DNA of 64,000 nt, taken from assembly GCF_035084215.1 (NCBI RefSeq), contig NC_090354.1, positions 21,762,001 to 21,826,000 on the forward strand, written 5' to 3'. Source of the DNA: Heptranchias perlo. Its lineage: Eukaryota. Of this stretch, positions 18,830-63,735 are shown one piece after another. Each line of letters begins with the position of its first letter. Position 1 is the stretch's first letter. Position numbers and translations under genes: made by a program. The notes under the pieces are model-generated. The model was given only the letters and a program-made list of their open reading frames with translations. It searched no databases and was not told the DNA's origin.

Positions 18830-19560
18830 CATAGTATCATAGTATGATGCAGCACAGAAGGAGGCCATTCGACCCATCATGCCTGTACCTCTTTGGTAGA
18901 ACTATCCAATTAGTCCCACTCCCCTGCTCTTTCTCCATAGCCTTGTAAATTTTTTCCCTTCTAGTATTTATCCAATTCCCTTTTGATAGTCATTATTGAA
19001 TCTGCTTCAACCATCTTTTCAGACAGTGCATTCCAGATCATAACAACTCACTGCGTTTTAAAAAAAAACATGTTTCCTCATGTTGCCTCTGGTTCTTTTG
19101 CCAATCACCTCAAACCTGTGTGCTTAGGTTACCAACCTTTCTGCCACTGGAAACAGCTTTTTCTTATTTACTCTATAAAAACCATTCATGATTTTGAACA
19201 CCTCTATCAAATTTCTTAACATTCTCTGCTCTAAGGAGAACAACCCCAGCTTCTCCAGTCTCTCCACATAACTGAAGTCCCTCATCCCTGGTACCATTCT
19301 GGTAAATCTCTTCTGCACCGTCTCTAATGCCTTGATATCCTTCCTAAAGTGTGGTACCCAGAATTGAACACAATACTCCAGATGAGGCCTAACCAGTGTT
19401 TTATAAAGGTTTAGCATGACTTCCTTGCTTTTGTACTCTATTAATAAAGCCCAGGATCCCATATGCTTTTTTAACAGCCTTCTCAACTTGTCCTGCCACC
19501 TTCAAAGATTTATGTACATACACCCCCACCTCTGTTCTTGCACCCCCTTTAGAATTGTAC
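18830..19560 (-). mobile_element. CR1 LINE 3' fragment
   Basis: ORF 19124-19486 reads LYKTLVRPHLEYCVQFWVPHFRKDIKALETVQKRFTRMVPG. Confidence 0.93.
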
Positions 19561-30450: not shown

Positions 30451-32002
30451 ATGGTGTCTGCAATGAATCTGGTTATGATGATTGATTGCAATGATTGAAC
30501 TGAGGGATGTCACTGCGGAACATTTGAACACTTTAGGCATCTATTGTCAGCATCAAAATCAGGTAGTACGTTGCAGGATGCAGTGCAAAGGTTACTCAGC
30601 TCTGATCCAGCAATGTGCTTTAACCATGCCCTGGGTTAATTTCAAAAGAGCAGCCCTAATCCAGCATGGAATTTTTTCACTCCCCATGCTAACCATTTTA
30701 TGGCCTTTGAATGACAAAAGGCATTTCAACCCATGAAGCCTATCTCCCTACAGATTATGTACAGTCTGGACTCTATCAAACTTTCACCTTACACTCACCC
30801 AAATGCATACATGCAAATTTACACCATCTATAAAATGACACAGTACATGCCTAACCATGCAAGTGCATTCTTTCCATGACCCTAACAGCTCAGGAAATGT
30901 TGTTTTCTGCAGGGTACTTGAATAGTTTTATCTGCGCTTGCCAATTATAAATTTTAATCCTGTTCCTAATCAAATATTTATCCAATCTTTCTTCAAGGGA
31001 GAGCCCATCAGATTATGGCCACTTTTTTGTATTGTAGGTCTGTGCCCACTCAGAGCTGGGTTTAGACTTCTGATTTATTTCACATAGGACACTTGGGTAG
31101 TATACCATCATATCTGCAGCCTCAAGTGATCTCTGCATGAACTCACCTGGGACAGATTTACCTCTGGGTCCCTATGGCAGCACAACTTTAATGGACGGAA
31201 CTTCTGCTTGGCCCAGGCAAGCGCCTCTATCCTCATTTTTCTCAGTCACAATCATTATCATAAGTTTGGTGGTCTCCCGATGGTGTTTCCACCGCCACTA
31301 GTATACCTGTCTCAGGTGTGGAGAAGGAAACGGCTGTGGTGCCAGCTGTACTGCAGCATAACCAGTGGCCTCGGCAGCAGACCGAAAAATTTTGAATAAA
31401 AAAAATCTCCTGCTTTGCCTGATGCTGTTGCTCACTGTGCTATTGATTGCACTAGGCAAGTCATTCCTTTAAAGTTTAAATTCCATCATGTACCATTTTA
31501 GCAACCCTGTCACCAGGAACATACTGATATTCCTGGTGCAAATGACTAGAAATACATCTCCAGAAGACTGCAGTTAGCCCATGACTGAATCACAGTCAAA
31601 ACCAACTAACAATTTACTCCTTATAACTGAGAATGCCCTTTTCACTCAGGAACTTGTCAGGGTTCCCCACTAGCGGACTGTAGTGACTCCATACTCTTCA
31701 TTACTTGATAGATGCTAGGAACAAACTAACCTAACTTTCTGTCAATGGATTTGTAGGCATGGCCTCTGGTCCTATTATCCATATCCATTTCAAAAGTACT
31801 ACTACCTACACAACTCAAACTGTAGTTCCTATCTTCACAGAACTACATTCATTCCTGGGGATGTGAATTATGCTAATTACAGGTAATCTATATAATCACA
31901 ATTAGATTAATTTTTTCCAATATTTTTAGTAAATAACCATTGTATAAAGTTGACTTCAAATTACCCGTAGTATCTTCTCCCAACTTTTAATGTGTTTTGC
32001 TT

Positions 32003-33722
32003 TAGAAGTCCTAAATGAATATTTCACATCAGTATTTACGGTTGAGAAAGGCATGGATATAAGGGAACTTGGGGAAATAAATAGTGATGTCTTGAGGAGT
32101 GTACATATTACAGAGAGGGAGGTGCTGGAAGTCTTAACGCGCATCAAGGTAGATAAATCTCCGGGACCTGATGAAATGTATCCCAGGACGTTATGGGAAG
32201 TTAGGGAGGAAATTGCGGGTCCCCTAGCAGAGATATTTGAATCATCGACAGCTACGGGTGAGGTGCCTGAGGATTGGAGGGTAGCAAATGTTGTGCCTTT
32301 GTTTAAGAAGGGCGGCAGGGAAAAGCCTGGGAACTACAGACCGGTGAGCCTGACATCTGTAGTGGGTAAGTTGTTAGAGGGTATTCTGAGGGACAGGATC
32401 TACAGGCATTTGGAGAGGCAGGGACTGATTAGGAACAGTCAGCATGGTTTTGTGAGAGGAAAATCATGTCTCACGAATTTGATTGAGTTTATTGAAGGGG
32501 TAACCAAGAAGATAGATGAGGGCTGTGCAGTAGACGTGGTCTACATGGACTTTAGCAAAGCCTTTGACAAGGTACCGCATGGTAGGTTGTTACATAAGGT
32601 TAAATCTCACGGGATCCAAGGTGAGGTAGCCAATTGGATACAAAATTAGATTGACGACAGAAGACAGAGGGTGGTTGTAGAAGGTTGTTTTTCAAACTGG
32701 AGGCCTGTGACCAGCGGTGTGCCTCAGGGATCGGTGCTGGGTCCGCTGTTATTTGTTATTTATATTAATGATTTGGATGAGAATTTAGGAGGCATAGTTA
32801 GTAAGTTTGCAGATGACACCAAGATTGGTGGCATTGTGGACAGTGAAGAAGGTTATCTAGGATTGCAACGGGATCTTGATAAATTGGGCCAGTGGGCCGA
32901 TGAATGGCAGATGGAGTTTAATTTAGATAAATGTGAGGTGATGCATTTTGGTAGATCGAATCGGGCCAGGACCTACTCCATTAATGGTAGGACGTTGGGG
33001 AGAGTTATAGAACAAAGAGATCTAGGAGTACAGGTTCATAGCTCCTTGAAAGTGGAGTCACAGGTGCGTAGGGTGGTGAAGAAGGCATTCAGCATGCTTG
33101 GTTTCATTGGTCAGAACATTGAATACAGGAGTTGGGATGTCTTGTTGAAGTTGTACAAGACATTAGTAAGGCCACACTTGGAATACTGTGTACAGTTCTG
33201 GTCACCCTATTATAGAAAGGATATTATTAAACTAGAAAGAGTGCAGAAAAGATTTACTAGGATGCTACCGGGACTTGATGGTTTGACTTATAGGGAGAGA
33301 TTGGATAGACTGAGACTTTTTTCCCTGGAGAGTAGGAGGTTTAGGGGTGATCTTACAGAAGTCTATAAAATAATGAGGGGCATAGATAAGGTAGATAGTC
33401 AATATCTTTTCCCAAAGGTAGGGGAGTCTATAACGAGGGGGCATAGATTTAAGGTGAGAGGGGAGAGATACAAAAGGGTCCAGAGGGGCAATTTTTTCAC
33501 TTAAAGGGGGTGAGTGTCTAGAACGAGCTGCCAGAGGCAGTAGTAGAGGCGGGTACAATTTTGTCTTTTAAAAAGCATTTGGACAGTTACATGGGTAAGA
33601 TGGGTATAGAGGGATATGGGCCAAGTGCAGGCAATTGGGACTAGCTTAGTGGTATAAACTGGGCGACATGGACATGTTGGGCCGAAGGGCCTGTTTCCAT
33701 GTTGTAAACTTCTATGATTCTA
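32003..33722 (+). mobile_element. Young, 5'-truncated CR1 LINE (ORF2 RT almost intact)
   Basis: ORFs 31990-32649 and 32671-33504 are one frame broken by a single TAG. Motifs [39 protein letters not shown] and KFADD; tail TTCTATGATTCTA. Confidence 0.97.
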
Positions 33723-34999: not shown

Positions 35000-36740
35000 T
35001 TAGTGTAAAGTACTTGTTCCTTACTTAATGTAATGAAGTTAAAGCTTCGACCAAACTGCTTTATTCAGTGTAGCATGTTTTTTTCATGTCACCATAGGTT
35101 GCCGAATTATATTGAGATTTTCATGATGGTCATTCACTACGGTTAAGTGGCAACTGACATGACATCATACATACTATGACACCCTTTCGCAATAATCCTA
35201 TAAGGGAAAGTGTAAATTTGTTAGCTGATTTAAGCAAAGATCTACAATTTTTTTTGCTGGAGTTTTATGTAAGCCATTTGTGAAGATAGCCTTGCCTCAC
35301 ATGTCACTGTTATTATCCAGTTGCTTTGGCCTCTTCATTTGTGAAATAAATTCTTTATTCCATTTTATGTTCTCTTGAGAATTTGTATCTCTTGCAGGAA
35401 TTTTTTCACTTTTTTTATAAAAAAGAAAGTAAGATACATACAGTTGTTTGTGTTTAGAAAACATAGTTCTGTGAGATCACATATTCTGTGATTATTAGCA
35501 GCATCTTCATGTGCCTGCACCAAATAGAAGGATGTAAGTTTGGATTCCACTCCCCCCACCCCCCCCCTCCTCCCTCCACTACCTAAGCTTCCAATATCAG
35601 CCATATCACTGGAAGTGTCTGACTTTTGCTTGGACCTCACTCTGAGAAGAGAAAATTGGAGGGGGATTCTTTGGGCTAGTTGAAGAATGGCATTTTGGAG
35701 ACCTGGCAATATGTCTTCCAGCTTCATGCCAACTGGAGGTAAATGACCCACCTACACCTGATTGAGGGATTTCACAATCTCATAGAAATAGTTTATATTT
35801 CTATCCATTTTTCTTGGTCTACTCATAACAGAACTCCCAGTTTCATAGTCGTTTGAAATGTAATATATTTCAAACTCTACTCCTTATTTCTACATTAGGA
35901 TTTTCAGCTGTGGTTAAGGATATCAAAAATGCTACATTTTATTTTCTCCTTATTTTGTTTAAAGTGTATATGTGCCAGAATTTTAACTTCTGTGACAACT
36001 TAACCTTTATATGTGTATATTTTTGTCTGGTTACCAATGCAAATAAAAAAGTTAGTGCTAGAATAAAACATTTTCCCACATTTGTATACTCGCGCCAACT
36101 TTTTTGCGCTCACAAAATATGGAGGAAAATATACCTGATAATTCTTGGAACTTTTGATGTAAAGGATTCAGAGTTAATGATCTGTTGAATACTAGAGGAC
36201 ATTTCTATGCACGATACAGTCAACCAGCCACAGTCAAGAGCTGACCAGTGTCAACATATGAGATCCATGAGCTTAATTGTAGTTATTGGGATCTAGACTC
36301 CAGGTTTTAGTGGTGCAAGATGAATATGCTTATTCTTTAACATTCTATTTGTTAATAGATTTTCAATTTATCCAAGGAATTTCTATTCACTTGATTTATT
36401 ACTGTGGTGGATTAATTGTTAACTTAATCACTGTGTTAAATTGGAAAACTTTAATAGAATGACAATGGAATTGTGCTCATTGATCTGTAGATAGTATATC
36501 TTGTTGCAAATTATTCTAAATAAATTAATAAAACTGAATTACAGGAAAAATTTGGTAATTATGTTCATAGAAAGAAGCTGAAGATTCTTGCGAGGTGTAT
36601 ATATGGGCCTGATAATGTGATGGAGCCATACATGTTTAAAGAGGCTACTGTTATGCTTTCTCACAGTTATTGTCAAACTGCCAAATGTACTAAGTTCACT
36701 GATTTTCAGGTAATGATAGGATTTTTGTTTCTTATTACAG

Positions 36741-37150
36741 CTAAAGATTGAAAAGGTTTCCATCTACCCTTTGGTTGAGTACCCTCTACAGGAGAATGTC
36801 TGTTTCCATTGTACATGTTTGATGAACAAACAGAGCAGCGTATGTTTGAGCCTCACCTCTGTGATGACAACATTGTTGTGGTAAGACGGAAGCAGTCGTT
36901 TGTTGCTAACAAAATAGTGCTGACTGCTTTCAGCTGGTTCTCTCTATTACTCTTCACACAGACCAAGTGGTTGCAGCAATTTGAACTCATTACTGAGGTC
37001 TTAACATCGCAAAGTTTCAATCAGATCCTATGCTTTATTTATACATCTAGCCTTAATGTGATTGCATGCGATGTATGGGAGGTGGTAAATATAGTCAGGG
37101 TCCTTCAGACGAGTCACATTGCCAACTCTTGCAAGAATCTGATTGACAGC
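36741..37150 (+). pseudogene. Degenerate, frameshifted BTB/POZ domain of ZBTB47 type at the 5' end of the large exon
   Basis: Frame from 36741 reads LKIEKVSIYPLVEYPLQENVCFHCTCLMNK; after a 2-nt offset (36831-36832) the main frame reads EQRMFEPHLCDDNIVVVRRKQSFVANKIVLTAFSWFSLLLFTQTKWLQQFELITEVLTSQSFNQILCFIYTSSLNVIACDVWEVVNIVRVLQTSHIANSC. This is collinear with the recalled ZBTB47 BTB. Confidence 0.85.
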
Positions 37151-37999
37151 TGTGCTTCGTATGTTGCTGGAATGGCCCAGGAGGGAAAGCAGTGCTCTCA
37201 GATCTCACCTCCATTTTATTGTAATGCTGACAAAGAACTTGATTTATCCACCAAGATTTACCCGAGAGAAGGGAATAAACCTTATTTGGTGAAAGTTGAG
37301 GATACGATGGCGAAACGACACTTGAAAGCAAGAGACCAAACGTATTATGAAGAAAGTAAGCAAGTTGAAGATGTTCATGGAATGGAAGGAGATGCAGAAG
37401 ACTCTGATGACTCAGATGACCAACGATCCTATAACCGGGAACAAATCATAGTTGAGGTGAACCTTAATAACCAGACTTTACATGTTTCAAAAGGGGCAGA
37501 AGGTGTGTCTTCACGGTCTGAGAAAAATGCCATGGTTGACTCCAGTGATGGGGAAAATGAAGATGGGGATGATGAAGAGGATGAAGATGCGGATGAGGAA
37601 GAGGAGGAGGAGGATGACATTGACTCTGAAGATGATGGACAAGACGATGAAGAAATAGAAGAAGACAACATCAAACACAGAAAACCCAAGGAAACTACCA
37701 GAATGGGGACAGCAGAAGCAACTCCTTCAAGAGAAAGCACAAAGATTGTAATGCCTGAGCAGAGAAAGAGAAAAAGTAAAGACTCTAAAGCTCCAACCCA
37801 GAAAGGAAAGCAGATTGAGGAAAAACAGAATCTCACCTGTGAGAAATGTCCCAGAGTCTTCAACAATCGCTGGTATCTTGAAAAACACATGAATGTCACT
37901 CACAGTCGAATGCAGATCTGTGACAAGTGTGGAAAAAAATTTGTGCTGGAAAGTGAACTCGTCCTTCATCAACAAACTGAGTGTGAAAAGAATATTCAG
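36815..37999 (+). CDS. ZNF652: ZNF652 first coding exon (degenerate BTB relic, acidic region, first C2H2 fingers); start codon uncertain (ATG at 36815, 36842 or 37172)
   Basis: Translation contains SHIANSCKNLIDSCASYVAGMAQE, ELDLSTKIY, REQIIVEVNLNNQTLHVSKG, a D/E tract and LTCEKCPRVFNNRWYLEKHMNVTHSRMQICDKCGKKFVLESELVLHQQTECEKNIQ, matching recalled ZNF652. Acceptor ttgtttcttattacag at 36740; phase-0 donor CAG|GTAGGC at 38000. Confidence 0.93.
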
Positions 38000-56842: not shown

Positions 56843-56990
56843 TGTGTATCCTGTGGAAAATGTTTCAAGAAGCTGTGGTCTCTGCATGAGCACATCAAAG
56901 TTGTTCATGGCTTTGCTGAAAAGAAATTCTCCTGTGAGATTTGTGAGAAGAAGTTCTACACAATGGCTCATGTTCGAAAACACATGGTCG
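56843..56990 (+). CDS. ZNF652: ZNF652 internal coding exon (C2H2 fingers)
   Basis: Acceptor ttttccctcag at 56842; reads [49 protein letters not shown] plus 1 nt; donor G|GTGAGT at 56991; 148 nt, phase 0 to 1, in frame with the previous exon. Confidence 0.97.
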
Positions 56991-60114: not shown

Positions 60115-61335
60115 TTTTTTTGAGGATGTAACTGGTAGAATAGATAAGGGAGAACCAGTGGATGTGGTTTATTTGGATTTTCAGAAGGCCTTTGATAAAA
60201 TCCCACATAAGAGGTAAGTGTGCAAAATTAAAGCACATGGAATTGGGGGTAATATACTGGCATGGATAGAAAATTGGTTAACAGACAGGAAACAGAGAGT
60301 AGGAATAAATGGTGGTTTTTTGGGGTACCGCAGGGATCAGTGCTTGGGCCCCAGCTATTCACAATATATATCAATGATTTGGATGAGGGGACCAAATGTA
60401 ATATTTCCAAGTTTGCTGATGACACAAAACTAGGTGAGTTGTGAGAAGGATGCAAAGAGACTTCAAGGCGATTTAGACAAGTTGAGTGAGTGGGCAAATA
60501 CATGGCAGATGCATTATAATGTGGATAAATGTAAAGTTATCCACTTCGGAAGGAAAAACAGAAAGGCAGAGTATTATTTAAATGGTAATAGGTTGGGGAA
60601 TGTTGATGTACAAAGGGACCTGGGAGTCCTTGTACACCAGTCACTGAAAGCAAATATGCAGTTGTAGCAAGCAGTTAGGAAGGCAAATGGTATGTTGGCC
60701 TTCATTGCAAGAGGATTTGAGTATAGGAGCAAGGAGGTCTTAATGCAGTTATACAGGGCCTTGGTGAGACCACACCTAGAGTATTGTGTGCAGTTTTGGT
60801 CTCCTTACCTAAGAAAGGATATACTTCCCATAGAGGGAGTGCAGCGAAGGTTCGCCAGACTGATTCCCGGGATGGCACGACTGTCGTATGAGGAGAGATT
60901 GGGTTGACTCAGTCCGTATTCACTCGCCTTTAGAAGAATGAGAGGGGATCTCATTGAAACATATAAAATTCTGACAGGGTTAGACGGACTGGATGCAGGG
61001 AGGATGTTTCCCCTGGCTGGGGGGTCCAAAACGAGGGGTTACAGTCTGAGGATACAGGGTAGGATATTTAGGACTGAGATGAGGAGAAATTTCTTCACTC
61101 AGAGGGTGGTGAACCTGTGGAATTCTCTACCACAGAAGGCTGTGGAGGTCAAGTCACTGAATATATTTAAGATGGAGCTAGATAGATTTCTAGACACAAA
61201 AGGCATCAAGGGGTATGGAGAGAGAACGGGAATATGTTGAGATAGAGATCAGCCATGATCATATTGAATGGCAGAGCAGGCTTGAAGGGCCGAATGGCCT
61301 ACTCCTGCTCCTATTTTCTATGTTTCTATGTTTCT
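60115..61335 (+). mobile_element. CR1 LINE, 5'-truncated, degenerate RT
   Basis: [42 protein letters not shown] and FFTQRVVNLWNSLP motifs; TTTCTATG tail. Confidence 0.95.

Positions 61336-63582: not shown

Positions 63583-63735
<153 letters not shown>

Follow-up and report, generated by a model that had tools for sequence, protein, structure and literature searches.

A ZBTB47-type BTB domain in ZNF652 of sharks and rays carries a shared frameshift and is probably translated in truncated form

ZBTB47 (ZNF651) resembles the ZNF652 gene of the shark Heptranchias perlo in its exon acceptor, in the lineage of its BTB domain (58% identity over 107 codons) and in zinc fingers 1 and 2, which are 90% identical. 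However, ZBTB47 keeps an intact BTB domain that does not vary among 8 elasmobranchs, whereas that of ZNF652 is frameshifted, truncated at its front and drifting. The orthologous ZNF652 of bony vertebrates (coelacanth, squamates, birds, mammals and a teleost) has the same MAQE/ELDLS linker and the same fingers; it differs in that a Pfam BTB domain is absent from all four proteins tested, while the elasmobranch protein carries one. MAZ and VEZF1 are likewise without a BTB domain, and we know of no frameshifted-BTB intermediate among PATZ1, MAZ and VEZF1. These proteins have related zinc-finger arrays, PATZ1 being the member with a BTB domain (available part of PMC11613955). MIZ1 (ZBTB17) is similar in another respect, since its BTB domain lacks strand β1; it nevertheless keeps helix α1 and homodimerises (PMC9468604, in the portion available), whereas in elasmobranch ZNF652 another frame supplies the front of α1 and the surface lacks conservation. 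The same portion of PMC9468604 counts β1 and α1 among the interface elements of ZBTB BTB domains and stresses a charged pocket. ZNF651 and ZNF652 are both bound by MTG16, as stated in the accessible part of PMC5735743. Searches of a largely open-access full-text literature, to which the original ZNF651/ZNF652 studies did not belong, gave no description of a BTB domain in ZNF652 or of its loss at the level of listings and the openings of abstracts, and a term search of the available part of PMC4540963 did not find the ZNF652/ZBTB47 genes named. Elasmobranch ZNF652 proteins are already in RefSeq with precomputed BTB matches; the open frame itself is thus annotated.

The window, that is the whole stretch of 64,000 nucleotides analysed, contains the following features, and two more ZNF652 exons lie beyond its end:

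9719-9749, plus strand: exon 1, 3' end of the upstream leader, with donor GTGAGT at 9750; matched by the overhanging ends of two contigs, X5 and X9
ATG 9731 to TGA 36749-36751, plus strand: 9-codon uORF, from translation of the spliced leader
36739-36740 and 38000, plus strand: acceptor AG and donor of exon 2, from the sequence
36741-37999, plus strand: exon 2, with the BTB remnant, acidic linker and zinc fingers 1-2; matched by P0138 residues 1-395
36741-36830, plus strand: pre-break BTB remnant (β1 and front of helix α1), out of frame, reached by no start codon
36815-36817, plus strand: new in-frame ATG in weak context, likely translation start; 10 named elasmobranch proteins begin there
36831-36832, plus strand: site of the 4-nt deletion, from alignment to the ZBTB47 gene (L002); no gap in 4 of 4 runs
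36833-37153, plus strand: post-break BTB core, sharing its frame with the linker and the zinc fingers; Pfam BTB E 2e-11 (36833-37150)
37109-37111, plus strand: codon ACG (Thr) aligned to the annotated start Met of bony-vertebrate ZNF652, from alignments and N-termini
37172-37174, plus strand: in-frame ATG (MAQE) in strong context, possible BTB-less start; Hypanus P0005 is annotated from here
56843-56990, plus strand: exon 3, zinc fingers
63612-63729, plus strand: exon 4, zinc finger

The protein of the gene has a C-terminal C2H2 finger array. In and around the introns lie reverse-transcriptase-like frames (31954-33504, 5160-5486, 19124-19501 and 60908-61240), which we take to resemble CR1-type LINE fragments.

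The initial annotation named the gene ZNF652, and this identity holds. The frame from 36815 is identical to P0138 (RefSeq, "zinc finger protein 652-like", Heptranchias perlo), residues 1-395 of which correspond to 36815-37999 with 100% identity. An unrooted tree of 22 proteins, built without the BTB columns, separates ZNF652 from ZBTB47 with support of 100/100, sharks and bony vertebrates standing on both sides; in a quick tree of 37 rows with all columns, the SH-aLRT value of the split is 100. The window gene falls outside the ZBTB47 clade and the genome has its own intact ZBTB47 on C2. Besides ZBTB47, a single gene of this type is present among the four genome matches. In human gene order, ZNF652 is presumably flanked by PHOSPHO1 and PHB1, neighbours that had been proposed as a synteny check. 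A PHOSPHO-family phosphatase gene (PF06888) lies on the same strand about 52 kb past the ZNF652 stop (C33:21885943-21886644); a profile search for the prohibitin family (PF01145) gave no match on C33, the contig of the window.

The proposal that a ZBTB47-type BTB sequence stands at the front of exon 2 is also confirmed, although it is divided between two frames. The frame from 36741 reads LKIEK...LMNK for 30 codons to the break, with 15 of the 30 residues identical to ZBTB47 of the same genome, and reaches a stop at 36882. The second frame, whose post-break part gives the 58% identity cited above, is open from 36779 to the end of exon 2, through the acidic linker and two fingers (416 amino acids from stop to stop). 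The Pfam BTB profile (PF00651) matches this second frame at positions 5-107 of 110 with E 3e-10 and 40.7 bits (cut-off 20.5), and P0138 with 39.8 bits (cut-off 20.5); the 39-residue pre-break peptide alone gives no match. The closest solved structures of the post-break frame are BCL6, ZBTB8A, LRF and Miz1. The other two frames downstream of the break contain 8 and 9 stops. An open frame of about 92 codons had been described after the break; it is indeed without a stop, but instead of ending there it continues into the zinc fingers. In nucleotide alignment, the window and L002 share the acceptor and are separated by a 4-nt gap at 36831/2; the aligner also placed a compensating pair of 1-nt gaps near 36990, with which a gap-free codon alignment dispenses.

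The 4-nt deletion is real. Of the 21 listed sequencing runs, four were compared, three of them from other organisms (B, C and E) and other studies; all four carry the deletion and none shows a gap at the break position. Contig X5, which stems from the sample that may be the source of the window, has 0 differences to it and contig X9 (organism B, another study) has 13 substitutions. Both are taken to be spliced from the leader exon because they continue upstream into letters matching 9719-9748. Since spliced contigs and three other organisms carry the break, the assembly error against which the initial annotation had advised a raw-read check is ruled out. The ATG at 36815 is the start, with the same frameshift-born first residues, in 10 of the 12 named elasmobranch species with a protein (Heptranchias, Cetorhinus, two Scyliorhinus, Stegostoma, Rhincodon, Chiloscyllium, Hemiscyllium, Amblyraja and Rhinoraja), and it is from these protein N-termini that the break is deduced in the named species other than that of the window. 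Its presence in both groups, as judged from these sequences, places the break before sharks and rays separated, some 250-300 million years ago; the idea of a loss special to this lineage is not supported.

The Narcine proteins (P0004, P0142 and P0144; isoforms X1/X2) read the pre-break frame past the break and rejoin two codons short, and a second deletion, of 2 nt, would therefore have occurred there, to judge from the protein. Narcine has Thr-Phe where the others hold the new ATG, which implies, again at the protein level, that this ATG is gone. The Hypanus X2 record (P0005) is annotated from MAQE, without the BTB remnant. The pre-break part behaves as an untranslated fossil, organism C having an extra 5-nt deletion at 36752; skate proteins, examined by eye, imply a further deletion in this part. 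For Carcharodon, Mobula and Mustelus the searches found ZBTB47 and no ZNF652, so that broken copies may be missing from the sample. No ZNF652 of chimaera, gar or bichir occurred among the best 120 matches of each of three protein searches, nor among 58 representatives. Over the 95 bases 36746-36840, no substitution is listed that separates the window from organism B or C, against about 6% just downstream. This quiet stretch spans the uORF stop and three ATGs; Narcine differs at 9 of 31 residues, and the effect may be local or due to chance.

Where ZBTB47 reads ACT TGT, the window reads ACA TGT: one silent change creates the ATG at 36815, 17 bases upstream of the deletion, and the loss of 4 nt brings this ATG into frame with the post-break BTB. 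The stretch 9201-9749 contains 5 ATGs, and from none of them does the pre-break frame run open into exon 2. The context of the 36815 ATG is weak, that of the 37172 ATG strong, and a uORF from 36796 overlaps the former. Because seven out-of-frame ATGs lie between them, 37172 is a poor target for scanning. Translation likely starts at 36815, giving a front-truncated BTB domain, an option that had been raised from the outset and is now supported; it seems possible that the 36815 and 37172 forms may both be made. The exon-1 ATG at 9731 was considered as the original start of the BTB domain, corresponding to a candidate first exon of ZBTB47 on C2; 112 of 1000 shuffles do as well, and the idea is not supported. 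The candidate exon itself (L011, near 159252941) ends in ATG TGG before a GT donor, which fits the MWLIVEK isoforms. Directly upstream of this exon stands a tandem repeat of about 40 bases containing runs of G.

Selection on the remnant was assessed from parsimony changes at residues 17-113 (97 columns) in 11 species. The remnant has accumulated 1.10 changes per column (107 changes); the corresponding rates are 0.56 for the near linker, 1.15 for the acidic linker and 0.04 for the fingers, and the BTB domain of ZBTB47 is identical at 107 of 107 positions in the 8 elasmobranchs; constraint is therefore much relaxed. The frame after the break is nonetheless open in all 11 species, where neutral simulation with 107 changes expects 6.7-8.1 stops and leaves 0-1 of 500 runs without one. 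Four post-break indels preserve the frame (three by protein alignment, the other a 3-nt deletion in organism E), and Narcine has an additional frame-rejoining indel. In terms of invariant columns, BLOSUM scores and polarity swaps, the bulk pattern is indistinguishable from neutral (P 0.10-0.58). A reading in which the frame is kept and the residues are free is, however, overturned by the distribution of changes over the fold. With a core mask of 40 columns drawn from 9 unrelated BTB domains, 26 changes fall on the core and 81 on the 57 other columns (P 2e-4; permutation P 1e-4). A near-identical mask of 39 columns receives 0.243 of the changes, against 0.41 +/- 0.04 in simulation. The contrast persists between hydrophobic core and hydrophobic non-core columns (P 0.004) and in 7 of 7 jack-knives (P under 0.05), and when the mask is slid through 41 positions the minimum falls at the true register (0.65, all others being at least 0.85). 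Three further core masks were tried, the strictest of which gives P 0.065. At the nucleotide level (36815-37123, pooled), 11 of 23 changes are synonymous (ω about 0.4, P 0.026); the window against organism C alone gives 8 of 20 (P 0.14), the list for organism C being taken, from table order, as whole to 37123, with changes private to E outside it.

Constraint is uneven across elasmobranchs. Galeomorph sharks show 10 core against 43 other changes (P 5e-4), batoids alone 9 against 20 (P 0.18). Radical changes occur at core columns in organisms C and E (L36P, T77R and Q98R), Heptranchias has F43S and M99T at core positions, and catsharks have lost 3 residues of a core helix, including two core columns. 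Among the eroded positions first pointed out, the change of FF to FS is local and not general, most other species keeping F. Of 11 extension-bearing elasmobranch proteins, 9 pass the Pfam BTB threshold of E 1e-5 (31-44 bits, compared with 85.7 bits for ZBTB47), and the remnants of Chiloscyllium and Hemiscyllium fall below it. Given the shared start, the open frame and the slower change of the core, these sequences speak against both a fresh accident and a dead relic; the remnant is most likely a translated, N-truncated and slowly decaying BTB domain. Against the molecular fossil that had been considered stand the frame kept open after the break and the protection of core positions. The helix pair after the second strand (36899-36955 in the window) is more hydrophobic in all 11 species than in ZBTB47.

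The truncated domain may still fold. AlphaFold2, given a 32-row alignment with 21 intact BTB rows, predicts a BTB topology (pLDDT 64.2), closest to PLZF, LRF and BCL6 with a TM of about 0.7; with 12 elasmobranch rows only, a shallow alignment run with no matched control, the model is not confident (pLDDT 44.5). Two-copy prediction of the remnant scored 0.00 in two runs made without an alignment and with the fold of the single copy itself uncertain, and it speaks neither for nor against pairing. The N-terminal extension that contributes to the dimer interface, β1 and the whole of α1, is encoded out of frame at 36741-36830 and has no start; the frameshift-born first residues resemble the helix that they replace. 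In elasmobranch ZNF652, Asn or Ile replaces the histidine of the AHK motif, and the charged-pocket residues Asp17 and Lys33, mapped through alignments to Miz1 and BCL6, do not vary among the 12 elasmobranch rows. We consider it likely that the remnant folds but lacks most of the ZBTB dimer lock, and that it pairs weakly or not at all. The probable lack of dimerisation suggested in the initial annotation is nonetheless a guess, in view of the unvarying pocket residues and of MIZ1, which homodimerises without β1.

In bony vertebrates, the ZNF652 records of coelacanth, squamate, bird and mammal start at a Met aligned with the LQM of the last helices of the BTB domain, which makes roughly their first twelve residues a leftover of that domain; this Met corresponds to Thr in Heptranchias and Rhinoraja. 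Upstream of the mammal-type start, a weak trace is left: residues resembling the preceding BTB helix in 2 of the 7 records with at least 11 such residues (P0183, P about 0.003; P0219, P 0.01-0.045) and not in the other 5. The descent of ZNF652 from a BTB-zinc-finger ancestor, proposed at the start, is supported. The break is poorly datable because synonymous sites elsewhere between ZNF652 and ZBTB47 are saturated (pS 0.77-0.90). The dN to ZBTB47 is 0.38 before the break and 0.32 after it, the former standing on the weak ground of 30 codons beside a splice site; the sequences hint that the break arose long after the duplication, and hence as a separate elasmobranch event.

On balance, the explanation that we favour, and hold to be somewhat probable, is that ZNF652 possesses a ZBTB47-type BTB domain with a 4-base deletion common to sharks and rays, and that a new ATG likely starts a truncated BTB predicted to fold. 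After the ZNF652/ZBTB47 duplication, the BTB of ZNF652 would have come under relaxed selection; the deletion would have removed strand β1 and the front of helix α1, and the chance ATG at 36815 would have rescued the reading frame. Selection since then would have kept the frame open, because any stop would remove the zinc fingers from the protein, and would have preserved the packing of the core, the surface being left to drift. The product would work much like the BTB-less ZNF652 of bony vertebrates, as a zinc-finger repressor binding MTG16/CBFA2T3. Bony vertebrates would be further along the same path, with their start at the Met of the last BTB helices.

A working MIZ1-like BTB, pairing with itself or with ZBTB47 and recruiting partners, would make elasmobranch ZNF652 functionally a ZBTB protein. 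The invariant pocket, the protected core columns, the helix-like new first residues and the homodimerisation of MIZ1 without β1 (PMC9468604, portion available) are all consistent with this, but it is unlikely in view of the interface elements named in that portion, β1 and the front of α1, which are out of frame, the replacement of the AHK histidine, the low Pfam scores relative to ZBTB47, a surface drifting at about the neutral pace and the radical core changes of organisms C and E. It is improbable that the jawed-vertebrate ancestor had a full ZBTB protein whose BTB was lost twice, by a shift of the start to the last BTB helices in bony vertebrates and by frameshift and chance ATG in elasmobranchs; in the latter the lock-less BTB would still pair, with itself or with ZBTB47, as it would have done since before the shark-ray split, and Narcine would have regained the front through its second deletion. 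The remnant could instead be a fossil in an untranslated leader, or an indifferent passenger, preserved by slow shark evolution while the protein begins at MAQE (37172). The contexts of the two ATGs, the Hypanus annotation, the near-neutral bulk pattern, the non-significant comparison with organism C alone and a possible ascertainment bias all point in this direction. This is nevertheless quite unlikely, since there are zero stops where about 7 are expected (P 0.036 still at half tree length), post-break indels are in frame, and untranslated DNA could not produce a contrast that follows the register of the BTB core; moreover, it was DNA and not annotation that led to organisms B, C and E, and none has a frame-breaking indel after 36833.

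It is very improbable that the remnant, through its increased hydrophobicity in the helices, has taken on a new role as membrane anchor or as a degradation signal tuning the level of ZNF652. The best 19-residue Kyte-Doolittle window is 1.64-2.03 in 11 of 11 species, against 1.09 in ZBTB47, but an unrelated intact BTB reaches 1.61 and the protected columns are those of the BTB core along the whole domain rather than of one segment; the excess of polar-to-hydrophobic changes (11, against 5 in reverse) is weak and was noticed after the fact. Production of a full-length BTB, whether because the break is an assembly error or because it is bridged by an alternative exon or start or by ribosomal slippage, is scarcely credible and largely refuted for this species: none of the four runs has a gap there, the pre-break frame is out of reach of every exon-1 ATG, and that part has suffered further deletions in organism C and, by implication, in skates. 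The Narcine isoforms annotated with the pre-break frame joined, and the 50% identity that the pre-break peptide retains with ZBTB47, are what speak for it. There is, finally, a negligible chance that the gene is a third paralogue kept by elasmobranchs. The midpoint of the unrooted 22-row tree does fall between bony ZNF652 and all others, and the prohibitin-family search found no match on the contig; the fully supported split with sharks and bony vertebrates on each side, the PHOSPHO-family neighbour downstream on the same strand (as in the human order) and the presence of just one such gene besides ZBTB47 in the genome matches argue against it.

The truncated, decaying BTB domain favoured here is of interest since domain loss after duplication is usually inferred from states before and after, whereas living animals here offer a graded series. 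It runs from ZBTB47, intact and invariant, through most sharks, in which the domain is frameshifted, rescued and constrained in its core, to the bamboo sharks and organisms C and E, in which it is eroding; in Hypanus it is possibly gone, and in bony vertebrates it is reduced to a terminal helix. The description of the gene as caught mid-way through domain loss is therefore apt only in the sense of a long-lived, unevenly decaying state. The series explains the origin of the human-type ZNF652 N-terminus and includes a frameshift rescued by a single silent change. A natural BTB domain without its N-terminal lock also constitutes test material for the role of that element in dimerisation. The locus is an evolutionary case study and introduces no new mechanism. 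Database names blur the ZNF652/ZBTB47 family: bird and alligator records labelled ZN652 or ZNF652 and having an intact BTB (P0010, P0044 and P0232, the three tested) are ZBTB47 by tree, and many further "ZN652" names occur on BTB-bearing records in the protein matches.
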